The notes under the pieces are model-generated. The model worked only from the letters and a program-made list of their open reading frames with translations, was not told the origin of the DNA and searched no databases. Position numbers and translations under genes: made by a program. 64,000 nucleotides of DNA from an uncultured Bacilli bacterium (GTDB lineage: Bacteria; Bacillota_I; Bacilli_A; RF39; UBA660): assembly GCA_944358705.1 (NCBI GenBank), contig CALVRR010000001.1, positions 40,050 to 104,049 of the forward strand, in the 5' to 3' direction. Positions 1,926 through 45,356 of the stretch are shown here, piece after piece. Within the stretch, counting starts at the first letter, position 1, and each line of letters opens with the position of its first letter.

Positions 1926-3260
1926 ATGGTAAAAAAAGTTGTCAAATATGTTTTTCTGTTTTTTATAATTCTTATTTTTAATTTAATTTGTTCACCTCTT
2001 AATTTGGATGAAGTATGGAATTATGGGTTTGCTAATAATATTTACCGGGGACTTGTTCCTTATGCTGATTTTAATATGGTTATTACACCTTTTTATCCTT
2101 GGTTTATGTCTTTACCATTTCATATCTTTGGTTCTAGTATGCTTGTTTTTCACATTACTAATGCTTTTATTTTAACAGGATGTCTCTTTTTGTTAGAAAA
2201 AATGTATCAAGATAAAATGTGGATATTCTTTTTGTTTTTCTTTTTCCCAGTTACTGCAGCTGCACCTAATTATAGTATTTTTCTATTTGTTTTGTTAGTT
2301 ATCCTTGTTTTTTTAGAGAAAAATTATGTTTCTCGTGATAGTAATCGTATTCATTATTTTATTGGTTTTTTGTTGGGGATTGCTGTTCTTACAAAGCAAA
2401 CGGTAGGGGTGTTTTTACTTGTTCCTAGTCTTGTTTTGTTTTGGAAAAATTGGAAAGTGTTAGGGAAGAGATTTCTTGGCTTTTTGATTCCTATTACTAT
2501 TTTTCTTATTTACTTATTTGTTACAGATAGTTTTTTCTCTTTTATTAATTTATGTTTGTTGGGATTGTTTGATTTTACTGAAAATAGTCGGATATTTAAT
2601 ATTTTTGGTTTGCTATTTTTATTTATGGTTCTTGTTACGATTTATTTTCTTTGGAAGGATAAAAAAAATATAATTCCTTATTATGTGTTATGTTTTTATA
2701 CAATTGTGATTCCAATTATTGATATTTATCATTTCTTTATCGCTTTTTTGGCTTTCTTGCTATTATTTTTATCTCATGTTCGTAAAACTTATTTTCACTA
2801 TTCTTTTTTAAGTATTATAGTTGTTTTTCTTATGGGAATTTTGTTAGCAAATTTTAATCAGTTTAATATTAAAAATTATCCTAATGATTTAAATCGTTTT
2901 CAGTATCGATATGTTCGCATGAGTAGTTATCAATTTACGAAGGAGGTTTTTGCTTATGTGAGGGAGCATGATGATAAAAATATTATGTATATGGTTCCTG
3001 ATGCTTATTATTTTAAAATTATTTTAGATCAAGATTGTGGGTATTTTGATTTGATTAATCAAGGAAATTTAGGTTATCGAGGTAGTCAGTGGTTATTAAA
3101 TAAAATAAAAAATATGGAGGATACTTTGTTTTTGATTGATCCTAGTGAATATGGTTCTGGGAATCAGATTGATCAAAAGGCACTCCAATACATTTTAGAT
3201 TATGGTACGAAAATAGATGAGGTTGGTTTTTATGAGGTGTATGTTTTAGAAGAGGAGTAA
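1926..3260 (+). CDS. Polytopic membrane protein, paralog 3 (putative GT-C-like glycosyltransferase)
   Basis: ATG at 1926 preceded by GAGGAGAAG; the ORF-track start at 1860 lies inside the previous gene. Motifs GLVPYADFN, LTKQTVG, LGLFDF, GNLGYRG. Confidence 0.55.
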   Translation: MVKKVVKYVFLFFIILIFNLICSPLNLDEVWNYGFANNIYRGLVPYADFNMVITPFYPWFMSLPFHIFGSSMLVFHITNAFILTGCLFLLEKMYQDKMWIFFLFFFFPVTAAAPNYSIFLFVLLVILVFLEKNYVSRDSNRIHYFIGFLLGIAVLTKQTVGVFLLVPSLVLFWKNWKVLGKRFLGFLIPITIFLIYLFVTDSFFSFINLCLLGLFDFTENSRIFNIFGLLFLFMVLVTIYFLWKDKKNIIPYYVLCFYTIVIPIIDIYHFFIAFLAFLLLFLSHVRKTYFHYSFLSIIVVFLMGILLANFNQFNIKNYPNDLNRFQYRYVRMSSYQFTKEVFAYVREHDDKNIMYMVPDAYYFKIILDQDCGYFDLINQGNLGYRGSQWLLNKIKNMEDTLFLIDPSEYGSGNQIDQKALQYILDYGTKIDEVGFYEVYVLEEE

Positions 3261-3263
3261 TTT

Positions 3264-4589
3264 ATGAAGAAATGGATTCGTTATATAGTTATTTTTATCT
3301 TTGTTTTTTGTAGTTATGAATTTTTTGGCTTTCCTAATATGTATGGAGATCCAATTAATAATTATATGTTTAGTCATGCCATTGTTATGGGGGAGGTACC
3401 TTATTTAGATTTTAATACGATATCTACGCCGTTATATGCATTTTTAATGGCAATAGGATTATTGTTTTTTGATAATTACTTGATGTTTGTTATTGAACAA
3501 AGTTTACTTGTTACTATTATGTTTTATTTTTTATTTGAATTATATGGAAAAAAGTGTTATTTGGTATTATTAGTTATTTGTTTATTTGCTTTTTTTGGTA
3601 TTAATGCCACTTATAATTTTCTAGCGTTGTTTTTTCTAGTCATTCTTTTATATTTGGAAAAAAAATATTCAGAAAAAGATTATCTTATAGGGTTTGTGAT
3701 AGGATGTACTATCTTAAGTAAGCATACTATTGGGTGTTTATTATTCTTACCATCTTTATTCTATTATTTTAAAGATATTAAAAAAATTGGGAAAAGAATT
3801 GTGGGAATTCTTATACCATGTACTATCTTTTTTATTTATTTATTGGTAAATAATGCTGTTTATCCTTTTATTAATCTTTGTTTCTTGGGATTGTTTGATT
3901 TTTCTTCTAAGAATGGAAATGTTTTTTCTGTTTATGTTTTGTTTAGTCTTGTTTTATTCTTGATTCAATTCTTTATTACTATAAAGAAGAAAAATGATAT
4001 TCGAAATTGTTATTTGATGATGGGAATAGCTTTTATGATTCCACTTTTTGATTTTCAACATTTTGCGATTTATATGATTTGTTTTGTTATTCAACTTTTA
4101 CCGTTTTTACAATATAGAGAGGATTATTTTGGAAATGTTGCCGCTATTTGTTCTGTTGTTGTTAGTATTTTTCTTTTTATAAATTATTGTATTTTATTAA
4201 AACCAGTATTTTCAACGGAACTTTCTCACTTTCAATATAGTTTAGTTAGTCGTTTTGATTATTCAAAATCGTTAGAAGCGTATGATTTTTTTGATCGATA
4301 TGAAAATAAATTGTTACTTACTTATTCGAGTGTTCCTTATGATGTTAGTAGAGATTATCCTATTACTTATTTTAATATTTTTATGAAGGGAAATTTTGGA
4401 TATGATGGAAGTCGTCAAATGATAGAGAAAATTCAGAATATGGAAAACATTTATATTATTGTTGATATGAGACAATATCAAATTCGTTCTATTTATAATC
4501 AATATGATAAGACGATTGTTAAATATGTTATTGATCATTATGAGAAAGTAGATACTTGGAAGGATTTTGTAGTTTATTATAAAAATTAA
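3264..4589 (+). CDS. Polytopic membrane protein, paralog 4 (putative GT-C-like glycosyltransferase)
   Basis: Starts 4 nt after the paralog 3 stop, with GAAGAGGAG upstream. Motifs GEVPYLDFN, LSKHTIG, LGLFDF, GNFGYDG. Confidence 0.55.
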   Translation: MKKWIRYIVIFIFVFCSYEFFGFPNMYGDPINNYMFSHAIVMGEVPYLDFNTISTPLYAFLMAIGLLFFDNYLMFVIEQSLLVTIMFYFLFELYGKKCYLVLLVICLFAFFGINATYNFLALFFLVILLYLEKKYSEKDYLIGFVIGCTILSKHTIGCLLFLPSLFYYFKDIKKIGKRIVGILIPCTIFFIYLLVNNAVYPFINLCFLGLFDFSSKNGNVFSVYVLFSLVLFLIQFFITIKKKNDIRNCYLMMGIAFMIPLFDFQHFAIYMICFVIQLLPFLQYREDYFGNVAAICSVVVSIFLFINYCILLKPVFSTELSHFQYSLVSRFDYSKSLEAYDFFDRYENKLLLTYSSVPYDVSRDYPITYFNIFMKGNFGYDGSRQMIEKIQNMENIYIIVDMRQYQIRSIYNQYDKTIVKYVIDHYEKVDTWKDFVVYYKN

Positions 4590-4656
4590 ATTATTAAAAC
4601 GCTTGGCGTTTTTTTTCTTTTATAGTATAATTGTTTTTAGGATGGGAGATGCGTTC

Positions 4657-5892
4657 ATGAGTCAAGTATATACTGGAATTGAATTGGGTACGGATAGTAT
4701 TAAAGTTGTTGTACTAGAAAAACTTCATAATAAGTTTCATGTTTTAGCATCTGTTCATAGTCCTAGCGATGGTATTTCGAAGGGACAAGTTGTAGATATT
4801 AAGAAGTGTGTTTCTAGCGTACGTGTTGCTTTAAAAAGAGTAAATGATATGTTGGGAATTAAGATTATAAAAGTGATTGCTGTAGTACCACCAACTGGAT
4901 GTATGTTAGATATTGCAGTTGGGTCTGTAGATGTTATGAATTCTTCTGGTATTACTGGAGGAGATGTTAGTCGAGTGTTAAAGGATTCTTTGGTTGGGAA
5001 AATTCCAGAGGATTCTGAACTTGTAACGGCGATTCCTATTAATTTTACTGTAGATGAAGAGGAAAATATTAAAGATCCTAAGGGAATGAGAGGAGCAATT
5101 TTAGAGACTAGGGTTGTTATTGCGACACTTCCTAAAGAACCTCTTTATCGATTCTTAGAAGTTTTAAAGTTAAGTGGTTTAGAAACTTTGGATATTGCAT
5201 TTACTTCTACTGGAGATTATTATGCAGTACGTAGTAGTAGACTTCAGAAGGAAGTAGGGGCAATTATTAATATTGGAGAAGAAATTACCAATGTTTCTAT
5301 TTTTAATAAGGGTATTCAGATTAAAAATGCTACTATTCCTATTGGAAGTCATAATGTTGATCGGGATATTTCTTATATTTTTAAAATAAAAGAGGCGGAT
5401 TCTAGGCGATTAAAAGAACAATTTGCTGTTAGTATGCAGTCTTATGCCGATAGTAATGATATGGTTGAAGTTCCTGTTGGAAATGATAAAAAAGAGATTT
5501 CTCAGGTGGGTATTTCTAAAGTTGTAGAAGCTAGGCTTGAAGAAATTCTCAATTTAGCAAAAAAAGAGATAAAAAACTTAACAAATAGAGAAATACGTTA
5601 TATAATAGTTACAGGTGGCCTTAGTGAGTTGGCTGGATTTCAGTATTTGGTAGAGTCTGTTTTTGGTCTTCAAGCTAAGGTTTGTAATATTAGTACAATG
5701 GGTCTAAGACATAATCGATATAGTAGTGTAATTGGCGCAGTACAATATTTTGATGATAAAATGTCTTTACGTGGGAAAGATGTCAGTATGATATCAGAAA
5801 GTGATGCTCAAACATTGATGTCGCCTGAGGATAAGACAATAAATAGTGATAATATTATTAGTAAAGTGTTTGGACATTTTTTTGATAACTAA
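4657..5892 (+). CDS. ftsA: Cell division protein FtsA
   Basis: MSQVYTGIELGTDSIKVVV actin-like N-terminus, GGLSEL and overall FtsA layout, immediately upstream of ftsZ. ATG at 4657 follows GGGAGA; the ORF-track start at 4603 adds an implausible FFFF leader. Confidence 0.9.
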   Translation: MSQVYTGIELGTDSIKVVVLEKLHNKFHVLASVHSPSDGISKGQVVDIKKCVSSVRVALKRVNDMLGIKIIKVIAVVPPTGCMLDIAVGSVDVMNSSGITGGDVSRVLKDSLVGKIPEDSELVTAIPINFTVDEEENIKDPKGMRGAILETRVVIATLPKEPLYRFLEVLKLSGLETLDIAFTSTGDYYAVRSSRLQKEVGAIINIGEEITNVSIFNKGIQIKNATIPIGSHNVDRDISYIFKIKEADSRRLKEQFAVSMQSYADSNDMVEVPVGNDKKEISQVGISKVVEARLEEILNLAKKEIKNLTNREIRYIIVTGGLSELAGFQYLVESVFGLQAKVCNISTMGLRHNRYSSVIGAVQYFDDKMSLRGKDVSMISESDAQTLMSPEDKTINSDNIISKVFGHFFDN

Positions 5893-5904
5893 GGAGGACT
5901 AGGT

Positions 5905-7020
5905 ATGATAGGTGGATTAGAATTAGATCAATTAGCCAAGATTAAAGTTATTGGTTTAGGTGGCGGCGGTGGAAACGCTGTTAATAGAATGGTAGAATCA
6001 GGTGTTAAAGGTGTTGAATTTATTGCTGCAAATACGGACTTGCAAGTATTAAATTCTTCTAAAGCAGATGTTAAGATTCAAATTGGTGCGTCTTTAACGG
6101 ATGGACTTGGTGCCGGAGCAAAACCAGAAATAGGTAAGGAAGCTGCGGTTGAGTCTAAGAAAGAAATTGAGGATGCTTTGGCTGGTGCGGATATGGTATT
6201 TATCACTTGTGGAATGGGTGGTGGTACTGGTACTGGTGCTGCTCCTATTGTTGCAGAGATTGCCCAGGGGTTAGGTGCTCTTACGGTTGCTATTGTTACG
6301 AAACCATTCTCTTTTGAAGGAAAGCGTCGTATGGACAATGCTTTGAAAGGAATTGAAGAATTAAAACAACATGTTGATACGTTAATTATTATTCCAAATG
6401 ATCGTTTGAGAGAAATTATCGATAAGACTACACCAATGCTTGAAGCATTTAAAGAAGTTGATAATGTACTTCGTCGAGGTGTTCAATCTATTTCTGATTT
6501 GATTGCTGTTGTTGGACTTGTTAACTTGGACTTTGCTGATGTCAAAGCGGTTATGGAAAAGAGTGGTCATGCTATTATCGGTATTGGTATTGGTATGGGA
6601 GAAGACAGAGCTATTGAAGCAGCAAAACAAGCAGTGTCTTCACCACTTCTTGAAACTTCTATTACAGGAGCAACAGATGCTATTATCAATATTACTGGTG
6701 GAGTTAATTTAACGTTATTTGAAGCAGAACAAGCTGCTGAAGTTGTACGTAATGCAGCAAATACGGATATTAATACTATTTTCGGTTCTGTAATTAATGA
6801 GAATTTATCTGATGAAGTCATTGTTACTGTTATTGCTACTGGATTTGATAAGAAAGCTGCACAACCAGAAGTAAAAGAACCAATATTTAGTAATGCTGCA
6901 CCATCGAGAAGAAGTGCTCCAATAAATGAAAATGTACCAGAGATGTTAGATTCTGATGATTCTTCTTCCGATGATGGAGATTTTGATTTACCACCTTTCT
7001 TAAGAGATAGAAATTATTAA
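5905..7020 (+). CDS. ftsZ: Cell division GTPase FtsZ
   Basis: Tubulin signature [32 protein letters not shown], and a C-terminal DFDLPPFLR peptide. Strong RBS TAAGGAGG. Confidence 0.97.
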
Positions 7021-38329: not shown

Positions 38330-38887
38330 ATGATTAGTACAAATGATTTAAAGAACGGTATTACTATTGAGGTTGAAGGTGCCATTTATGTGGTTATGGA
38401 TACTCAACATGTAAAACCTGGAAAAGGTGCTGCTATTGTAAAAGCAAAACTTAAAAATTTAAGAACGGGTGCTATTATTGAAAAAACATTTAATGCAGGA
38501 ATAAAAGTTGCTACTGCTCATATTGATAAGCAATTAATGCAATATTTATATACGATGAGTGATGTTTATTATTTCATGAATATGGATACTTATGAGCAAT
38601 TAGAATTATCTAAAGATATTGTTTCTGATAATGCTAAATTCCTTAAAGAAAACTTAGAAGTATATATTACTATGTTTGAAGGGGAAGTATTAGGTATTGA
38701 TTTACCTGATAAAGTAGAACTTACTGTTACTCGTACTGAAGCAGCTGTAAAAGGTAATACTACTAATAATGCATTAAAAGATGCAGAAGTGGAAACTGGT
38801 TATACCGTACGTGTTCCTTTATTTATTGAAGAAGGAGAAAAAATTATTATATCTACTAGTGATGGTAAATATGTATCAAGAGCGTAA
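38330..38887 (+). CDS. efp: Translation elongation factor P
   Basis: MISTNDLKNGITIEVEG, VKPGKGAAIVKAKLKNLRTG and C-terminal VRVPLFIEEGEKI. Confidence 0.95.
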   Translation: MISTNDLKNGITIEVEGAIYVVMDTQHVKPGKGAAIVKAKLKNLRTGAIIEKTFNAGIKVATAHIDKQLMQYLYTMSDVYYFMNMDTYEQLELSKDIVSDNAKFLKENLEVYITMFEGEVLGIDLPDKVELTVTRTEAAVKGNTTNNALKDAEVETGYTVRVPLFIEEGEKIIISTSDGKYVSRA

Positions 38888-38914
38888 GCTCTTTTTTTTA
38901 TGAAAAAAAGAAGA

Positions 38915-39811
38915 TTATTCTTCTTCGATTTCTTTTAATAAATTTAAAAAGGTAAGAGATGCTTTTTTTAATTGTTTTTGTTTTAAATAAGTGGCTCCAA
39001 TTTGTCTTGGTGGGATAGTTGGAGTTGTTTTTATTTCAAAAAGCGTTTGTTCTTTTAAATCTTTTTTTAAAAATTCCTTGGTTGCATAGCCAATTCCTAA
39101 TCCTATTTTGGTAAATGCGGTTACTAAGGAATGACTCGCTAATTCCATTTCCGGAGATAACATGATATTGTTTTTTTCACAGAAGTCGTCTAAAAATATT
39201 CTTGTATTTGATCCTTTTGCTATTAGTATTAATGGATAGTTATTCATTTCTTTTAAAGGTATTGTTTTTCCTTTTAATTCTTTCCAATCTTTGCTTGCGA
39301 TAAAGCAGTCGTTAACTTCTTTTAGTTTTGTTTCTTTAAAATCTGAAGGTAATTGATAGGGTAGATTTAAAATAATAAAATCGATTAGTCCATTTCTTGC
39401 CTGGGTAATTAATTCAAAGGTAGGACTTGTAGAGATTTTTATTTTTATTCTTGGGTATTGTTCATGAAATTTTTTTATATATGGAAGAAGATATTTTCTT
39501 GTTAGAGTGTTACTTACTCCAATTGATAAAGTTCCATAGTCTAGGTTTAGTGTTTCTTGAAGAGTTTCTTCGGCATGTTCTATCATTTCTATTGCTGGTT
39601 TTATATTTTTATAAAAAGTTTCTCCTTCTTCTGTTAGACTAACTCCATATTTGTTTCTGATGAATAGAGTACATCCTACTTGGTCTTCTAATGTTTTTAT
39701 TGATTTACTTACGGCTGGTTGACTAATCATTAACTCATGAGCTGCTTTTGTAATGTTTTTGTTTTTTGCAACGCTATAAAAAGTTTTATATAATTCATAA
39801 TTTACATTCAT
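38915..39811 (-). CDS. LysR family transcriptional regulator
   Basis: N-terminal HTH FYSVAKNKNITKAAHELMISQPAVSKSIKTLEDQVG plus a LysR substrate-binding domain. Divergent from the operon that starts at 39935. Confidence 0.9.
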   Translation of the reverse strand: MNVNYELYKTFYSVAKNKNITKAAHELMISQPAVSKSIKTLEDQVGCTLFIRNKYGVSLTEEGETFYKNIKPAIEMIEHAEETLQETLNLDYGTLSIGVSNTLTRKYLLPYIKKFHEQYPRIKIKISTSPTFELITQARNGLIDFIILNLPYQLPSDFKETKLKEVNDCFIASKDWKELKGKTIPLKEMNNYPLILIAKGSNTRIFLDDFCEKNNIMLSPEMELASHSLVTAFTKIGLGIGYATKEFLKKDLKEQTLFEIKTTPTIPPRQIGATYLKQKQLKKASLTFLNLLKEIEEE

Positions 39812-39934
39812 ATGTTTTGCCCCCCTCAGTTATAACAATTTGTTATTTCTGGTATGAATAAAAAGTATTTTTATTATATTACAAACCCTTTTATAATACA
39901 AGTTGTTAGATGTGAAAGAAGAAAGGAGAGTTTT

Positions 39935-40777
39935 ATGGCATCTTTTGTTATTCACCATATTTCTGGTGAAGCGTTCTTAAATGAACTAGAAAAAGAGGGG
40001 GTAGTGTTATCAGATACAGAAAAAAAACAATTTTTACTAGGAAACTTAATTGTTGATTCTTCTAGAATAAGAAAACAACTTCCAGAAAACTTAAGTCTGG
40101 AAGAACAAAGAGCTTTTAAGAAGAAGTTAAGAGATGAAGTGCAAGAAGAAAAGAAAAGTACTCATTTTCGAGATGAAGATGATTATAAACTTTGTATTCA
40201 GGCACCTAATCTTTCTTCTTTTATCGAGAAGTATCAAGATCTTATTACAAAGGATTATACTGCTCTTGGTTATTTATATCATTTGTATGTAGATAAAATG
40301 TTTTTTAATGATTTGTTTCGTGATACTTTTGTCTGTTTAGATAAGGATGGAAATGAGACAAAATATATTGCAGATTTAGTTTCTATGCAAGTGAAAAAGA
40401 GTGGAGAAGTTTCTCCGGTAGAAGATTTTTGGAGTCATGACAGTAGTGTTAGTATTTATCATGATTATACAGTTATGAATAAGTTATTGTTAGAAAAATA
40501 TGGTACTTGTTTTGATGCGGAAAAATTATTAGAAAATCATGATACTACTTTTGTTAATCCTGGTATTTATGAAGTGGATTATCAGAATGTTACTAGTGTA
40601 GTTTCCAAAACAGCCGCTTATATTGGAGAATCTTATCAGGTTGAAGATAATTCCTTGTATGTTTTTGATCAAAGTAAAGTCGAAAGTTTTATTGAACAAG
40701 TAGCGAAAGGGTTTCTTTCTTCCTATCCAGAAGCTGTACCTAGTAAATTGGATGTAAAGGAGAATAGAAAATGTTAG
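39935..40777 (+). CDS. Hypothetical protein, possibly zinc-dependent phospholipase C-like (PF00882-like) metal hydrolase
   Basis: ATG at 39935 follows AAAGGAGAG. The pattern FVIHHI..., FLLGNLIVDS, KSTHFRDEDD, LGYLYHLYVDKMFF resembles Firmicute Zn_dep_PLPC family proteins as I remember them. Overlaps the next gene by 7 nt. Confidence 0.4.
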   Translation: MASFVIHHISGEAFLNELEKEGVVLSDTEKKQFLLGNLIVDSSRIRKQLPENLSLEEQRAFKKKLRDEVQEEKKSTHFRDEDDYKLCIQAPNLSSFIEKYQDLITKDYTALGYLYHLYVDKMFFNDLFRDTFVCLDKDGNETKYIADLVSMQVKKSGEVSPVEDFWSHDSSVSIYHDYTVMNKLLLEKYGTCFDAEKLLENHDTTFVNPGIYEVDYQNVTSVVSKTAAYIGESYQVEDNSLYVFDQSKVESFIEQVAKGFLSSYPEAVPSKLDVKENRKC

Positions 40778-41367
40778 AGATATTTTCTGCTTGTTGTGGT
40801 CTTATACAGAGTATTTTAATTTTGTTTAAGAGAAAAGAAAATTGGATTTTTTATTTGCTTAATATCCTTACTTTAACAATATTTTCTTTTACTGCTAAAT
40901 TATATGGAGATGTGATTGAAAATTTAGTTTATGTTGTTTTTGGATTTTTAGGGTTATTTACTTGGTATTCTGTTTCTGTTTCTAAAAAAATATTTGGAAA
41001 TGAAAATAACATTCGATACGCCAATTGGAAAGAACGAATATTTTATGTTTTTATGTTTTTATCTATTAGTGTAGGAATGTATTTCTTTTTGAAATCTACG
41101 GATGATCCATTTCCATTTTTGGATGCAATTACTACAGGAATGAGTTTTACTGCGACCTTGATGATGGCCTTTAAGAGAGTAGATTCTTGGGTAGTTTGGT
41201 TTGTGGATGATATATTAATGGCTTATGTTTATTTTTCTTTACCAGAGAAAGCAATTTATTTAATGGCTTTAAATATTATCTGGGTAATACTAGCGGTTGG
41301 TACTTTTTGGACTTGGCATAAAGAAGCAATAGGAAATGGGGATAGAAATGAAAGAAAAAAAGTTTAA
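40771..41367 (+). CDS. pnuC: PnuC family (nicotinamide riboside/nucleoside-type) transporter
   Basis: 198 aa, about 6-7 TM segments. ENWIFYLLNILTLTIF, LYGDVIENLVYVVFGFLGLFTW and WVVWFVDDILMAYVYF match the PnuC pattern. Substrate unknown. Confidence 0.65.
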   Translation: MLEIFSACCGLIQSILILFKRKENWIFYLLNILTLTIFSFTAKLYGDVIENLVYVVFGFLGLFTWYSVSVSKKIFGNENNIRYANWKERIFYVFMFLSISVGMYFFLKSTDDPFPFLDAITTGMSFTATLMMAFKRVDSWVVWFVDDILMAYVYFSLPEKAIYLMALNIIWVILAVGTFWTWHKEAIGNGDRNERKKV

Positions 41368-42706
41368 AGAATTGGAAATTATTTTAAGTGACTTTTCTTG
41401 TGACAAGAATTGTCCGTATTGTACTGCTAAAATTACTAAGTGGGAAGTGGTTCAAGATGATATTCATATGCTTAGTTTGTATGTTGGTCAATTAAAAGAG
41501 CTTGGGTATCAGTTTCATTATGTGACACTTGGTGGTAATGGAGAACCGACAAAACATTCTATTAAAAAATTAAGAGAGATTGTAGAGTTGTTTGATGATT
41601 ATGATATTCCGGTAAAGAGAGTATTAACTTCTGGCAATGTCTTTCGTGAAGAAGAAAGAGAAAAGTATGATCTTTTTACTTCTTATGGTTGGATATTTGA
41701 AGTTACTACGACTTCGATTGATAATGATTTGGATAGGAAAGTTTTGGGATACGATCATAATTATTTTCAAAGTGATGCATTTTCTAAGGCTAGGATTCGC
41801 TTAAATTATGTTTTGTTGAAAAGTAATTTTTCTTCGATGATTGATGAAGTACGGGAGTTTTTTAAGAGGTATCCTAATATTGAAACACTGGCTATTAAAT
41901 TGCTTAATGTGAATACCAAAACAGGTCTTGTGGATAATCCTCGTTCTTCTTGGATAGTAGAAAATGCTATTGCGAAAGAACAAAGAGAAGAAGTGAAGAA
42001 GCTTTTGGATCAGAACTTTACTTATTTAGGAGAAGCGTATGACACTTTTTCTTGGAAGACGGAAGATGGTCATGAAGTTTATTTTTCCTGGAAAAAGATG
42101 AATTATGGTTTTTCTGATTTGGTTTATTATGGTAATCGATTTGTGAATTATCAATTAGAAGAGGTTAGTCTTCCTTTTCTGCCTAAAATTTATTTTGCTT
42201 GTCAATTTCATAAGGAAATGTTAGATGATAAGTGCTTTACTTTGAAAAATGATTTTCGGGCGAAATTGATAGGGAAGGAAGAGGATTTTACTAATTTTAA
42301 TAATCATAGTTTTATTAAGAGTAGTGATGGGAAATTGTTGTATCAATATCTAGGACCATTTTATAATGAGAAGGCTAGTGATGGAGAACTTACTTCTACG
42401 GTATGTTGTGAGGTTGTCCAAACGGAGAATGATTTGATTGATAAATGTGATATTTTTATGGCTTATTTTGATTCTAAATTAAGTCCTGGTAGTATTACGG
42501 AACTTACCTATGCGTCTTTACAAAAGAAGAAAATCGTTATTTTTTATCAAGTGGAGGATAATATTTCTTATGAACTTAAGTCGTCTAATTGGTATCCTAT
42601 TGTATCGGCAAGACTTGTTGCTGGTAGTGAAAATGTAGTAGAGATTCCTGTTCGTGGGACGGATGAAGTTTGTGATTATTTTCGAAAGGGAAAGAAGTTA
42701 TGGTAG
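41348..42706 (+). CDS. Fusion protein: N-terminal radical SAM domain plus C-terminal nucleoside 2-deoxyribosyltransferase-like (SLOG/NDT-type Rossmannoid) domain
   Basis: CDKNCPYC (CX3CX2C; Cys18, Cys22, Cys25) and the LGGNGEP SAM-binding motif. C-terminal KIYFACQF ... DLIDKCDIFMAYFDSKLSPGSITELTYASLQKKKIVIFY resembles the NDT/Rcl pattern with the conserved Glu. Overlaps pnuC by 20 nt. Confidence 0.65.
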   Translation: MKEKKFKELEIILSDFSCDKNCPYCTAKITKWEVVQDDIHMLSLYVGQLKELGYQFHYVTLGGNGEPTKHSIKKLREIVELFDDYDIPVKRVLTSGNVFREEEREKYDLFTSYGWIFEVTTTSIDNDLDRKVLGYDHNYFQSDAFSKARIRLNYVLLKSNFSSMIDEVREFFKRYPNIETLAIKLLNVNTKTGLVDNPRSSWIVENAIAKEQREEVKKLLDQNFTYLGEAYDTFSWKTEDGHEVYFSWKKMNYGFSDLVYYGNRFVNYQLEEVSLPFLPKIYFACQFHKEMLDDKCFTLKNDFRAKLIGKEEDFTNFNNHSFIKSSDGKLLYQYLGPFYNEKASDGELTSTVCCEVVQTENDLIDKCDIFMAYFDSKLSPGSITELTYASLQKKKIVIFYQVEDNISYELKSSNWYPIVSARLVAGSENVVEIPVRGTDEVCDYFRKGKKLW

Positions 42707-43590
42707 TTTTAAGACTTGGAAAGATTAATAATGAAGAGCGAAAATTTATTCCTACTAGATTAGATATTTTAGAAGAATATTTGCAAGGTATGGAAGAAAT
42801 TGAAGAATATGAGTTGACGCAAACTTATCGTGATGGCTATAAATATCGTAGATATTGTGATCATGGGAATATGAAATATACTAGAAATCTTAAAATGGGT
42901 AAAGTTACCGATGTTGTAGAAATTGGTGAAGAGGAGTTTTTAGAAGTTTTGAAGGATACGAAAAAAAGTATTCGTAAGATTCGTAAATATTATCAAGATG
43001 GCGATTATGAAATTGATGTTGATTATTTTATGGAACCAGTTTCTATGATTATGGTTGAAGTGGCTAGTTTGGGTGCTCCTTTAGCTGATTATCAAGCACC
43101 GAAAGGATTTGTTGATGTTACTGGTAATAAAATATATGAAAATAGTAGTATTTATCAAGGAAGTATCTTGTCTAGTTCTACTATTATTGAAGGGACGGAT
43201 GCGGTAGGAAAAAGTACTACGGTTGATAGACTACTTTCTATGGGAATTCTTTGTAGAGAACGTTCTATGGATATGTTTTCTAAGTATATGGAGTTTACGG
43301 TACCTTTAGAAGAGAGGGTAGAACATTATTACGAATATTTAAAAAATCATGAGGAAAAAGTTATTTTTTTAGTAAATCATGATAAGATGGAATTGGAACG
43401 TAGAGTTTCTTTAAGAGATGTTATTAGTGAATTTGATAAAAAAGCATATGAATACAATCAACTTTATTTTGAAACTTATCAATATATGATGGAACATGAT
43501 ATGTTAGAAGGAAAGTTGTTTTTGGTCGATTGTACAAATTTAACATTCGAAGAACAAGTAGAGAAAGTAAAAAATATTATTATAAATTAG
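42700..43590 (+). CDS. Fusion protein: N-terminal CYTH-like domain plus C-terminal P-loop nucleoside/nucleotide kinase-like domain
   Basis: NNEERKFIP (ExExK-like; the first Glu position reads Asn) and IDVDYF...IMVEVAS are CYTH hallmarks. Walker A IIEGTDAVGKSTTV resembles thymidylate kinase or ribosylnicotinamide kinase. The ATG overlaps the upstream stop (ATGGTAG). Confidence 0.55.
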   Translation: MVVLRLGKINNEERKFIPTRLDILEEYLQGMEEIEEYELTQTYRDGYKYRRYCDHGNMKYTRNLKMGKVTDVVEIGEEEFLEVLKDTKKSIRKIRKYYQDGDYEIDVDYFMEPVSMIMVEVASLGAPLADYQAPKGFVDVTGNKIYENSSIYQGSILSSSTIIEGTDAVGKSTTVDRLLSMGILCRERSMDMFSKYMEFTVPLEERVEHYYEYLKNHEEKVIFLVNHDKMELERRVSLRDVISEFDKKAYEYNQLYFETYQYMMEHDMLEGKLFLVDCTNLTFEEQVEKVKNIIIN

Positions 43591-43591
43591 G

Positions 43592-44203
43592 ATGGTTTTT
43601 ATGATTTTTGCAACAAATAATAAAGGGAAATTAAAAGAAATTAGGGAGATATTTTCGGATTATGAAATACTATCTCTTTCCGATGTTGATCTTTCTATTG
43701 ATGTTTTAGAAGATCAGGATAGTTTTTTAGGAAATGCTACTAAAAAAGCGAAAGAGGTTTATTCTATTACTAATCAAGCATCTTTTGCGGATGACTCTGG
43801 TCTATGTCTTGATGCTTTTGATGGATGGCCTGGTGTTATGACTCATCGTTTTTTAGGAGAAGATGCTACGGATGAAGAGAGAAATCTAGCGATTATAGAA
43901 AAATGTAATGAGGTATCTAATCGTGATGCTTCTGTTGTTTGTCAATTGGTTTATTATGATTCTTTAGGAACTCCTATTGTTGGTACTGGAGTTTTAAAAG
44001 GTAAGATTGCTTCTTCTCCTCGTGGAGAAAATGGTTTTGGATTTGATCCTATTTTTGAACTTCCTAATGGGAAGACATTGGCAGAATTAACTGCAGAGGA
44101 GAAGAATCAATGTAGTGCTAGAAGTCTTGCAGCAATAGATTTAAAACAGAAGTTAGATACGCTTTTTCTTAACGATGGTGTAAGTGAAGTTCGTCATAAA
44201 TAA
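43592..44203 (+). CDS. rdgB: RdgB/Ham1 family non-canonical purine NTP pyrophosphatase
   Basis: FATNNKGKLKEI, NATKKAKEV, ADDSGLCLDAFDGWPGV, GFGFDPIF, CSARSLA. Starts 1 nt after the upstream stop. Confidence 0.88.
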   Translation: MVFMIFATNNKGKLKEIREIFSDYEILSLSDVDLSIDVLEDQDSFLGNATKKAKEVYSITNQASFADDSGLCLDAFDGWPGVMTHRFLGEDATDEERNLAIIEKCNEVSNRDASVVCQLVYYDSLGTPIVGTGVLKGKIASSPRGENGFGFDPIFELPNGKTLAELTAEEKNQCSARSLAAIDLKQKLDTLFLNDGVSEVRHK

Positions 44204-44261
44204 AAGTTTCTTGTATCTTTGGTTTAAATCCATTATAATATTTTACTAACAGGTGAAGAAT

Positions 44262-45356
44262 ATGGATTTTGAACATTACCACAAGATACTACCTTTATAT
44301 TGTACGGTTTGTGATATGATCCAACAACATCCGGATGGTATTACTGATTATGAATTAAAATCTTTATTACAGACGAAGGGATTTTCGTTTGATGATGAAG
44401 ATTTTTTTGGCGTTATTTCGATGTTACTTATCTCTGATGGGTGTATACAAAGGGATGATTATTGGAGCCGTGGTGCCGTTTATTCTTATATTAAAAATCC
44501 ACATTTACATGATTCTGCTTACTCTAGACATCATTATTCTTTTACGGTTGATGATAATGTTTCTGACAAGTGTTTTGTTGTTTTGGCCGATACCCATGTG
44601 GGACATCCAGAGTTTGAGGATTTTCGTATGTTAGATGGTATTTATTCTTTTGCGATTGGTGATGGAGCAGATAAATGTTTTCATATGGGGGACTTGTTTA
44701 CTGGAAAAATGGGAGATTGTTTTTCTAAAGAGGAGATGTTAGATCAACTCAATTCTTTTATTTCTTCTTATCCGAAGCCATATCCCTGGGAGATGCGTAC
44801 TTATGTTAATGTTGGAAATCATGATGAGTATCTTCACGGTTTTTTTCATCCAGATGTCAAAAAGGAAGAGCAACCATATCTTTATGATTTGAGAGGATTA
44901 AATACTTATCATCCAGACTTTTTTGTTATTCCTAGGGAAAGATTTCGAACTAAGTTTTCCAATATCGATATGCATTTTGGACATCGTTTGTATGTTAGTG
45001 GAATTCGTCCAGAAGTAAAATTATTTGCTCTTCAAGATATGAATGAAGAAGAGCGATGGTTGGATGAGCGATATGATGTTTTATGGTCTGGACATTTACA
45101 TAATGGATTTATTTATACTACGGATGTTCCCTGGGGAGATAGAAAGCAAATTCTTTTTTTAGGAGTTCCTTCTACTAGTAAATATAATTTAGGAGGCGTT
45201 GTTGCTTATCTTGCTCATTTACATTATGAAAATCAACGTGTTTCTACTATGGATGTCGATTTTTTGAAATGTGATAATAATTACCATATTACGAAGGAAG
45301 AAGGAGTTCACTGGGATTTTTCTGGAAATAATAAGGTTATTAAAAAATTATTATAG
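44262..45356 (+). CDS. Calcineurin-like metallophosphoesterase with an N-terminal extension of about 95 aa
   Basis: VVLADTHVGH, HMGDLF, NVGNHDE and SGHLHNG motifs. ATG at 44262 follows AGGTGA. Confidence 0.8.
   Translation: MDFEHYHKILPLYCTVCDMIQQHPDGITDYELKSLLQTKGFSFDDEDFFGVISMLLISDGCIQRDDYWSRGAVYSYIKNPHLHDSAYSRHHYSFTVDDNVSDKCFVVLADTHVGHPEFEDFRMLDGIYSFAIGDGADKCFHMGDLFTGKMGDCFSKEEMLDQLNSFISSYPKPYPWEMRTYVNVGNHDEYLHGFFHPDVKKEEQPYLYDLRGLNTYHPDFFVIPRERFRTKFSNIDMHFGHRLYVSGIRPEVKLFALQDMNEEERWLDERYDVLWSGHLHNGFIYTTDVPWGDRKQILFLGVPSTSKYNLGGVVAYLAHLHYENQRVSTMDVDFLKCDNNYHITKEEGVHWDFSGNNKVIKKLL

Follow-up and report, generated by a model that had tools for sequence, protein, structure and literature searches.

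Organization of the locus

We examined a cluster of six genes and a divergently transcribed LysR-family regulator (positions 38915–45356) in a 64,000-nt stretch of DNA, referred to below as the window, from an uncultured Bacilli bacterium (contig CALVRR010000001.1, positions 40,050–104,049). At the centre of the cluster lies a gene encoding a radical S-adenosylmethionine (SAM) enzyme fused to a domain of the nucleoside 2-deoxyribosyltransferase (NDT) superfamily, preceded by a gene for a PnuC-family transporter. A first-pass annotation of the same DNA had described six co-directional genes with overlapping or abutting junctions, divergent from the LysR gene, and the open reading frame (ORF) map returned all seven ORFs in that form.

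The regulator gene occupies 38915–39811 on the minus strand and is separated from the operon by a 123-nt control region (39812–39934). On the plus strand, gene 1 (39935–40777) encodes a metal-dependent hydrolase that may be a remote relative of zinc phospholipase C. It is followed by the gene for a PnuC-family (Pnu-type) riboside/vitamin uniporter (40771–41367) and by the fusion gene, in which the radical SAM domain (residues 1 to ∼285) spans 41336–42190 and the NDT-superfamily domain, of the MilB/BcmB/DNPH1 type, spans 42191–42706. Gene 4 (42700–43590) joins a CYTH domain to a P-loop kinase. The last two genes encode an RdgB/Ham1 non-canonical purine NTP pyrophosphatase (43592–44203) and, as gene 6 (44262–45356), a metallophosphoesterase with an N-terminal extension of ∼90 residues.

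Gene 1 and the PnuC gene overlap by 7 nt (40771–40777), as do the fusion gene and gene 4 (42700–42706). The overlap between the PnuC gene and the fusion gene is 32 nt if the first ATG (41336) is used, or 20 nt with the ATG at 41348 that was chosen in the first-pass annotation. Gene 4 and the Ham1 gene are 1 nt apart, and a gap of 58 nt precedes gene 6. The junctions stand as they were first described, while the start of gene 1 was moved from 39854 to 39935, because a strong ribosome-binding site, AGAAAGGAG, lies 6 nt 5′ of 39935 and because the homologue alignments begin at query residue 28 in nearly all of the 150 matches listed. For gene 6 we kept the ATG at 44262, since the upstream GTG (44253) falls within an AGGTGA ribosome-binding site.

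The control region contains a perfect dyad, ATAACAA-T-TTGTTAT, at 39832–39846, which was read directly from the sequence. Such a T-N11-A dyad is the classical LysR box. No Rfam element or riboswitch was found in the window, the control region included, or in the 22 related loci scanned. No convincing intrinsic terminator was detected inside the operon, the only two consensus matches being weak and lying within the Ham1 coding sequence, and none was found between gene 6 and ftsK. The locus is bordered by efp upstream and ftsK downstream, and its GC content is flat (0.28–0.34 over the region), with no island in base composition. The efp and LysR genes converge, and the hairpin with a T-run behind it that separates them (38878–38893) resembles an efp terminator that may act for both.

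A radical SAM domain fused to an N-glycosidase-like domain

The fusion protein has 456 residues and scored below threshold with every Pfam model. PF04055 gave 16 bits against a gathering cut-off of 29.5, and the NCBIfam matches were likewise below threshold. The sequence is thus divergent, and we assigned the N-terminal domain to the radical SAM superfamily from its motif and fold. The cluster-binding cysteines, C22-x3-C26-x2-C29, are invariant in 35 fused and 18 mixed sequences; the GGE-type SAM-binding motif, GGNGEPT, is invariant in 35 homologues, and the domain has no further conserved cysteine. An AlphaFold model built on the alignment of homologues had a pLDDT of 90.3 and a pTM of 0.88, and given this pTM the two domains are predicted to be packed in a fixed way.

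In Foldseek searches with the N-terminal 285 residues the best match was MoaA (1tv7, 1e-8), followed by SuiB, anSME and BlsE, with HydE and BioB also present, in keeping with the partial TIM barrel of the superfamily. MoaA and BlsE are nucleotide-binding enzymes, BlsE working with the MilB homologue BlsM in blasticidin synthesis. A PADLOC match to the viperin model pVip (5.7e-6) was confined to the generic cluster-binding half of the domain; there was no NCBIfam viperin match, and no viperin appeared among the top 50 PDB structural matches. Searches of the BFVD structures returned only generic radical SAM and NDT matches.

The C-terminal 170 residues matched the CMP N-glycosidases MilB and BcmB, together with nucleoside 2-deoxyribosyltransferases, in Foldseek. 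A profile made from the fused and free NDT-like forms gave BcmB first (4jen, 9e-8), then BlsM (5vto) and MilB. The radical SAM::NDT-like fusion proposed in the first-pass annotation is therefore confirmed for both domains, by the motifs, the model and the structural matches. The NDT-like domain has three invariant residues, Y286, S383 and E389, the last of them unchanged whether the domain is fused or free. The motif SxGTxxELxxA aligns with SPGTHVEIGWA of MilB, so that the catalytic Glu corresponds to E389 and the Ser six residues earlier to S383, which is likewise matched by the SPGT Ser of BcmB, BlsM and MilB. From what is known of DNPH1 and MilB, we take this Ser to replace the Asp of the true transferases and to contact the 5′-phosphate. 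Since the Ser…Glu pair of the monophosphate-specific branch is kept, the domain reads as a putative nucleoside-monophosphate N-glycosidase.

The domain shares with MilB, BlsM, BcmB and DNPH1 the fold, the catalytic Glu, the Ser six residues before it and the pattern S-x-G-T-x-x-E-L/I-x-x-A. It differs from them in an insertion of ∼65 residues with its own invariant residues (D306, R308 and G340-P-F), in its fusion or translational coupling with a radical SAM enzyme, and in its Pfam scores, which are below threshold.

PnuC, the NDT-like domain and the radical SAM protein form an invariant core

We collected 99 related loci, which fell into 50 non-redundant groups, 33 of them with a radical SAM protein at least 37% identical to that of the window, and clustered the neighbouring ORFs. 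Counts given below out of 20 refer to the core-family non-redundant groups with at least 6 kb of flanking sequence; those for PurA, the nicotinamide mononucleotide (NMN) adenylyltransferase (NMNAT)-like gene, and the DHH, HD-type and histidine phosphatase genes are over all groups. A single-sequence query returned 190 clusters of the radical SAM family, and a profile returned 341. The family is almost entirely metagenomic, its hosts being uncultured gut or rumen Bacilli/Mycoplasmatota and Alphaproteobacteria represented by metagenome-assembled genomes (MAGs). The names on record are ‘hypothetical protein’, ‘4Fe-4S cluster-binding domain-containing protein’ and the automatic ‘organic radical activating enzyme’; no named or characterised homologue is among the 341 clusters, and the family had no match in GenBank phages or PLSDB plasmids.

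PnuC, the NDT-like domain and the radical SAM protein occur together in the 33 groups wherever the contig is long enough. Among the well-flanked loci the NDT-like domain was found in 20/20 and PnuC in 19/20, and in all 19 the PnuC gene adjoins the radical SAM gene. Three arrangements of the trio were seen (PnuC–fusion gene, PnuC–NDT–rSAM and PnuC–rSAM–NDT, where rSAM is the radical SAM gene), and it is kept at radical SAM identities down to 37%. The NDT-like domain is a separate gene in lineages at 37–44% radical SAM identity and on a virus-classified contig (51%). Three MAGs (81–85% identity; labelled Bacilli or Mycoplasmatota) have retained the complete layout of seven genes between efp and ftsK, with a DHH phosphoesterase in the Ham1 position in one of them (L003). 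The retention of the layout in three MAGs, and of the trio down to 37% identity, shows that the arrangement is not due to chance; conservation of the gene neighbourhood had been put forward as a check in the first-pass annotation, and the locus passed it.

The invariant core consists only of the transporter, the NDT-like domain and the radical SAM protein, and the remaining genes are recurring, interchangeable accessories. The CYTH::kinase was present in 9/20 of the well-flanked loci and Ham1 in 10/20, with the position of Ham1 changing as the gene order is rearranged. The phospholipase C-like hydrolase was seen in 6/20 and the metallophosphoesterase in 5/20. Each of three further types was seen in fewer loci: a DHH/DHHA1 phosphoesterase, a small HD-type protein, which in L043 is fused to DHH, and a histidine phosphatase. 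The phosphohydrolases around the core thus come to five unrelated kinds. In five lineages a genuine PurA (573 bits, cut-off 402) is embedded in the cluster. An NMNAT-like gene (NF002243, 3e-16 and 2e-15, below the cut-off) heads the cluster in four, with a CofE-like ligase beside it in three of these.

Siting among core genes, as noted in the first-pass annotation, holds for the window; elsewhere the cluster occupies other chromosomal sites. In other lineages it adjoins valS, secA or tuf, indicating that it moves as a unit. The bare trio is also found on a 416-kb contig classed as viral by IMG/VR, which shares 94% nucleotide identity with a 166-kb metagenome scaffold, and a giant phage may use the trio as an auxiliary metabolic function. 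On this contig (IMGVR_UViG_3300011005_001194, L019:5427–7340) and at L010:6430–8343 the order is PnuC–rSAM–NDT, followed by a DUF7338 protein, and the neighbours on the virus-classified contig are small ORFs matching PHROGs of unknown function. A phage origin was also considered for the closest fused relatives (L020, L024 and L012) and rejected: their PHROG matches are to a housekeeping sigma factor and polymerases, and these contigs are probably bacterial.

The transporter and its regulators

The transporter exceeded the cut-offs of both curated models, PF04973 (1e-33; 117 bits against 27) and TIGR01528 (72 bits against 42), and its sole relative in sequence searches of the PDB was the nicotinamide riboside transporter 4qtn (1.3e-8). 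Transport by Pnu proteins is by facilitated diffusion, the substrate being trapped by a cytoplasmic kinase. The substrate differs between Pnu subfamilies: members carry nicotinamide riboside, thiamine and riboflavin, and deoxynucleosides are predicted as substrates (PMC7749635).

The regulator in the window matched PF00126 (5e-20) and PF03466 (2e-31), both above cut-off; no NCBIfam equivalog reached its own cut-off. The HTH_1 and substrate-binding domains, the divergent target gene and the T-N11-A box identify it as LysR-type. The LysR, PnuC and RdgB/Ham1 calls of the first-pass annotation all passed curated cut-offs. A divergent LysR gene was found in 6/20 of the related loci and an NrtR-like regulator in 5/20, the latter replacing LysR in at least five lineages. 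These NrtR-like proteins match the model of the ADP-ribose-responsive repressor far below the family cut-offs and in the DNA-binding domain only. NrtR itself controls nadR–pnuC operons (PMC2330246).

Gene 4 joins a CYTH domain to a P-loop kinase

The AlphaFold model of the gene 4 product had a pLDDT of 94.3. Residues 1 to ∼145 gave Foldseek matches to the triphosphate tunnel metalloenzyme (TTM) SaTTM (7ns9, 6e-7), NE1496 and CyaB; the remainder matched guanylate kinase (2anc) and the kinase–TTM tandem of Arabidopsis AtTTM1 (7z67), in agreement with the CYTH::P-loop kinase fusion recognized in the first-pass annotation. The kinase motifs are invariant (an IEGTDGVGKTT loop, (D/E)R(S/C) and an RxxxR lid) and are those of thymidylate/deoxynucleoside kinases, while the profile search did not resolve the kinase subfamily.

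The CYTH domain has the eight-stranded tunnel fold with its lining of basic residues, K48, R50, K65, K93 and R95 being invariant. It departs from the N-terminal ExExK metal-binding motif, which here reads N11-x-E13-x-K15, the first Glu being replaced by an Asn that does not vary. Judged from these residues, the domain may bind a triphosphate without the usual hydrolysis. None of the 159 matches to the gene 4 family carried a Pfam domain or a functional name. Identity within this family is 55–70% between lineages whose radical SAM proteins are only ∼40% identical, and conservation is thus stronger for gene 4 than for the core.

Among solved proteins, only that of the Arabidopsis TTM1/TTM2 type (7z67) combines a uridine-kinase-like P-loop domain with a triphosphate-tunnel domain. 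There the domain order is reversed and the proteins are eukaryotic and membrane-anchored, and in gene 4 the first Glu of ExExK is the invariant Asn. A homology between gene 4 and the NrtR-like regulators was rejected, as it arose as an artefact of single-linkage clustering from one read-through ORF in L066. This 557-residue ORF (L066:8839–10512) joins a gene 4 homologue to an NrtR-like regulator and is either a real fusion or a sequencing read-through.

Ham1 and the two remaining hydrolases

Ham1 matched PF01725 (1e-54) and the curated equivalog TIGR00042 (160 bits against a cut-off of 145). For gene 1, which the first-pass annotation called a zinc phospholipase C-like hydrolase, only a remote relationship can be proposed. 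The family has 221 representatives, in which H7, D41, H77, H116 and D120 are invariant; 12 of the 32 members sampled match PF00882 (zinc phospholipase C), the best at 1.7e-5 and all below the gathering score. On these sequence matches a remote kinship is plausible.

All five signature motifs of metallophosphoesterases are present in the translation of gene 6: DxH (ADTH), GD (MGDLF), GNHD, H and GHxH (SGHLH). The protein itself had no Pfam match and its PHROG phosphoesterase matches were weak; a homologue in L008 (28% identity, E 1e-40) matches PF00149 and PF12850, which bears out the metallophosphoesterase call. Sequence searches of the PDB gave no match for gene 1 and nothing useful for gene 4 or gene 6.

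Relation to known systems

The view of the first-pass annotation that the genes belong to no characterised pathway held up. We found no curated family match for the set, no named homologue of the radical SAM protein and no paper that combines PnuC with a radical SAM enzyme and an NDT. Neither the radical SAM protein nor gene 1, gene 4 or gene 6 could be assigned to a pathway with Pfam, NCBIfam, PADLOC or PHROGs.

In its logic the operon comes nearest to queK–qrtT–queL of Clostridioides difficile (Yuan et al. 2019), a queuosine/queuine salvage operon in which a radical SAM lyase stands with a nucleoside hydrolase and a transporter (described in PMC11477304, PMC12632869). Both systems have a dedicated transporter, a base-removing enzyme for an imported modified nucleoside and a radical SAM remodeller, and both occur in gut bacteria unable to make the compound themselves. 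They differ in that the transporter is a Pnu-type uniporter here but an energy-coupling factor (ECF) S-component (QrtT/QueT) there; the glycosidase has the NDT/MilB fold and is apparently monophosphate-specific here, whereas that of C. difficile has the IunH fold. Control is by LysR or an NrtR-like regulator here, with no Rfam match in the window or the 22 loci, and by a preQ1 riboswitch there. The CYTH-kinase, Ham1 and phosphohydrolases are extra to the present system.

As in PnuC–NadR and other Pnu–kinase pairs, a PnuC-family gene here stands beside a P-loop kinase able to trap the substrate, and sibling clusters contain NrtR-type regulators and an NMNAT-like enzyme. However, there is no NadR here, the kinase is fused to a CYTH domain, and the radical SAM enzyme and N-glycosidase are obligate, although neither has a role in known nicotinamide riboside salvage. 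In gene content the operon also resembles viperin/CMPK2 and the thmABC genes of Photorhabdus, where a radical SAM enzyme, a nucleoside kinase and a self-resistance NTPase yield 4′-thiothymidine (PMC12691670): each combines a nucleotide-acting radical SAM enzyme, a kinase and a protective enzyme that hydrolyses NTPs. Unlike the present operon, those systems lack a Pnu-type transporter and an N-glycosidase. Their roles are in biosynthesis or defence, while the context of the present genes suggests uptake. We see the locus as an operon for transporter-coupled nucleoside processing that includes a radical SAM enzyme and whose logic has a precedent.

A possible import and remodelling pathway

In a small-genome gut bacterium, the operon could serve, on substrate induction, to import and dismantle an exogenous, probably non-canonical, ribonucleoside; we give this reading about an even chance. 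In such a pathway the riboside would diffuse into the cell through the PnuC uniporter and would be trapped as its 5′-monophosphate by the thymidylate/deoxynucleoside-kinase-like domain of gene 4. With known Pnu transporters, trapping is done by other kinases. The MilB/DNPH1-type domain, which has the required Glu and Ser, would then cleave or exchange the base at the monophosphate level. The substrate of the radical SAM domain would be either the still uncleaved nucleotide or, after cleavage, the free base or sugar phosphate, and the radical step would make the fragment usable. Because the two domains are fused or translationally coupled, and the pTM of the fusion is high, the radical SAM enzyme should act on the same molecule as the glycosidase, around the point of cleavage.

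Ham1, the CYTH domain and the interchangeable phosphohydrolases would block the build-up of foreign triphosphate and return it to the monophosphate pool; these phosphohydrolases would be the phospholipase C-like protein and the metallophosphoesterase here, and the DHH, HD or histidine phosphatase elsewhere. The products would finally join the normal nucleotide pools. Sibling clusters embed either PurA (IMP to AMP) or the NMNAT-like enzyme, which suggests a purine or pyridine nucleotide output. LysR here, and the NrtR-like protein elsewhere, would induce the operon in response to the substrate or an intermediate. The scheme of import, trapping, cleavage and remodelling starts from the family and motif assignments and the gene linkage as found, and reads from them the direction of transport, the substrate and every activity. 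As a whole, we judge it equally likely to be right or wrong.

The genes are tightly coupled and preceded by a LysR box, and the trio is invariant through three arrangements and one fusion. Further support comes from the PnuC scores above curated cut-offs, the monophosphate-branch Ser…Glu pair, the fixed domain packing predicted for the fusion protein, the invariant kinase motifs and strong conservation of gene 4, and the way in which Ham1 follows the rearrangements. The embedded PurA and NMNAT-like genes, the metabolite-sensing LysR/NrtR-type regulators, the gut and rumen hosts and the queK–qrtT–queL precedent in logic point the same way.

Several observations weigh against this interpretation. 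No riboswitch that would name the ligand was found with Rfam in the window or the 22 related loci. The clues to the output conflict, as PurA and Ham1 point to IMP while the NMNAT-like and NrtR-like proteins point to nicotinamide adenine dinucleotide (NAD). Cytoplasmic phosphohydrolases beside a trapping kinase fit export at least as well as import, and Pnu uniporters can in principle run in either direction. A minimal trio without its own kinase is present in the virus-classified contig, L004, L020 and L006.

Salvage of an imported compound and the production of modified nucleotides had both been put forward in the first-pass annotation, and both survive, with salvage favoured. In the second, which we regard as unlikely but worth keeping in mind, the operon would make a modified nucleoside for export, which would act as an antimetabolite or as a signal. 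The kinase would supply the nucleotide, the radical SAM enzyme would modify its sugar or base (as for viperin, oxetanocin and 4′-thiothymidine), and the NDT-like domain would swap or release the base; a phosphohydrolase would then strip the phosphates, PnuC would release the nucleoside and Ham1 would guard the producer from the toxic triphosphate. The thmABC cluster, which pairs its radical SAM enzyme and nucleoside kinase with an NTPase for self-resistance and makes 4′-thiothymidine (PMC12691670), gives this route a model. No cluster variant is without a cytoplasmic phosphohydrolase; these enzymes come from five unrelated folds, as though the enzyme for a single generic dephosphorylation step had been exchanged again and again. 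The weak PADLOC match is to kinase-associated viperins, and the nearest folds are those of the nucleotide-binding enzymes MoaA and BlsE, the latter acting with the MilB homologue BlsM in blasticidin synthesis. However, Pnu-family exporters are not known, and PnuC is the tightest-linked partner and usually the first core gene, which is typical of uptake operons. The LysR/NrtR-type regulators, the small-genome auxotrophic hosts and the PurA and NMNAT-like genes fit nutrition better than antibiotic production, and the bare trio persists in several lineages without kinase, phosphatase or Ham1. A specialised branch of nicotinamide riboside/NAD metabolism seems quite improbable to us. The compound imported by PnuC would be nicotinamide riboside or a related one, whether nicotinic acid riboside or a form that is reduced or oxidised; gene 4 would be a ribosylnicotinamide-type kinase, the NDT-like domain would cleave NMN or take it as a phosphoribosyl donor, and the radical SAM domain would repair or convert the pyridine moiety. 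This would account for a PnuC that scores above the NCBIfam cut-off for nicotinamide riboside transporters and has such a transporter as its sole PDB relative, for the NMNAT-like gene at the head of the cluster in four lineages (NF002243, below cut-off), for the NrtR-like regulators that replace LysR in at least five, given that NrtR governs nadR–pnuC operons (PMC2330246), and for a NadE-like motif upstream in L042. Yet ordinary nicotinamide riboside salvage requires neither a radical SAM enzyme nor an N-glycosidase, and PurA and Ham1 are left unexplained. The NMNAT-like and NrtR-like matches are far below their family cut-offs, those of the regulators lying in the DNA-binding domain only, and no NAD riboswitch was found in the window or the 22 related loci.

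The likeness to queK–qrtT–queL raises the question of a non-orthologous queuosine salvage, for which we see little chance. Queuosine would enter through the Pnu protein and be phosphorylated, the NDT-like domain would release queuine (compare Qng1, which acts on queuosine-5′-monophosphate) and the radical SAM domain would convert queuine to preQ1 (compare QueL). The three-part logic is that of the C. difficile genes, one known queuine-releasing enzyme is monophosphate-specific (PMC11130926), and streptococci have explicitly been suggested to have a replacement for a missing QueL (PMC12632869). Queuosine is available in the gut, where the hosts live, and since it is a 7-deazapurine a clean-up of the Ham1 type would be sensible. 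Nevertheless, neither the window nor the 22 related loci contain a preQ1 riboswitch, Pnu transporters are unmentioned in a survey of queuosine-precursor transporters, and PurA, the NMNAT-like gene and the NrtR-like regulator would have no part to play. The locus sequences scanned also had no TGT or QueA signature, which is weak evidence since they are genome fragments only. The same scan for motifs of TGT, QueA, NrdD/NrdG, NadD, PRPP synthase and Hpt in these fragments returned only the NadE-like motif of L042 and, for the same reason, is uninformative. A viperin-type system that makes chain-terminating nucleotides for anti-phage defence or counter-defence is the least probable explanation, and we consider it very improbable indeed. 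It would fit the weak pVip match, the kinase adjoining the radical SAM gene, the trio on the 416-kb virus-classified contig and an Apyc1-like metallo-beta-lactamase-fold protein that adjoins a distant radical SAM clade. Against it, no other gene was matched in PADLOC, NCBIfam gave no viperin match and viperin was outside the top 50 structural matches; the siting between the core genes efp and ftsK with flat base composition, the metabolite-sensing transcription factors and the obligate transporter and glycosidase, which are not known in viperin systems, also speak against defence.

Returning to import and remodelling, the radical SAM/N-glycosidase pair might carry out a new radical nucleotide transformation, with PnuC supplying the substrate. 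A modified nucleoside of the gut lumen that could not otherwise be used would be converted to IMP-type or NMN-type building blocks in uncultured small-genome gut bacteria and at least one giant phage, and the CYTH::kinase would be a new type of trapping kinase. We offer this fuller proposal tentatively and rate it somewhat below an even chance. If true, this would be the first Pnu-coupled radical SAM pathway. To our knowledge, few radical SAM enzymes act on free nucleotides (MoaA, viperin, QueE, OxsB, QueL and AbmM), and each has revealed new chemistry. Here a well-delimited family of 341 clusters has no characterised member, and its fixed, informative partners narrow the search for a substrate to nucleoside monophosphates that a Pnu channel can admit. 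The family is confined to salvage-dependent uncultured gut and rumen lineages, and the identity of the substrate would reveal a nutrient exchange in the gut and might help in culturing them. The analysis also brings to light a bacterial CYTH::kinase fusion and, unusually, an operon slot filled by five unrelated phosphohydrolase folds.

Variant loci and the wider window

Some of the related loci have unusual gene structures. A 364-residue ORF at L041:5377–6471 is an apparent PnuC::NDT fusion, a second kind of fusion within the core trio. In L004, a 66.8-kb contig with a PnuC and fusion gene pair, the 303-residue product called at 5342–6253 has two in-frame stops under table 11, the first being a TAG at 5471–5473; the contig may use a recoded stop codon, as in some gut phages and bacteria. 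In L012 the fusion protein (3038–5002; P0080, 654 aa) carries ∼200 further residues at its N terminus, a domain in which no resemblance to PnuC, or to whatever else was tested, could be detected. This locus is without PnuC, has a tRNA gene directly downstream and a MazG-like pyrophosphatase nearby. Upstream of the cluster in L043 (1018–3718) are an HD-like::DHH fusion phosphohydrolase, a CoaD-like nucleotidyltransferase and a CoaE dephospho-CoA kinase.

PnuC and NDT are both lacking from a more distant radical SAM clade (31–35% identity; L047, L049, L051–L063 and L070; for example L052:7411–9468). Its gene always lies between those for an 80-residue protein and a 223-residue protein with the core of a class II aminoacyl-tRNA synthetase (SerRS-like), among many small ORFs, and it looks like a different, likewise undescribed system. 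At L064:5007–5714, L068:881–1588 and L051:518–1252 a metallo-beta-lactamase-fold protein adjoins the distant radical SAM homologues; its best Pfam match is the anti-Pycsar protein Apyc1 (48.6 bits, just below the cut-off of 50).

Over the window as a whole (1–64000), the plus strand holds 55 of the 59 ORFs of at least 150 residues, and in the part that was profiled (30000–52000) the GC skew is strongly positive (∼+0.3). Strand bias and positive skew together assign the window to the leading strand of one replichore; the genome is low in GC (30%).

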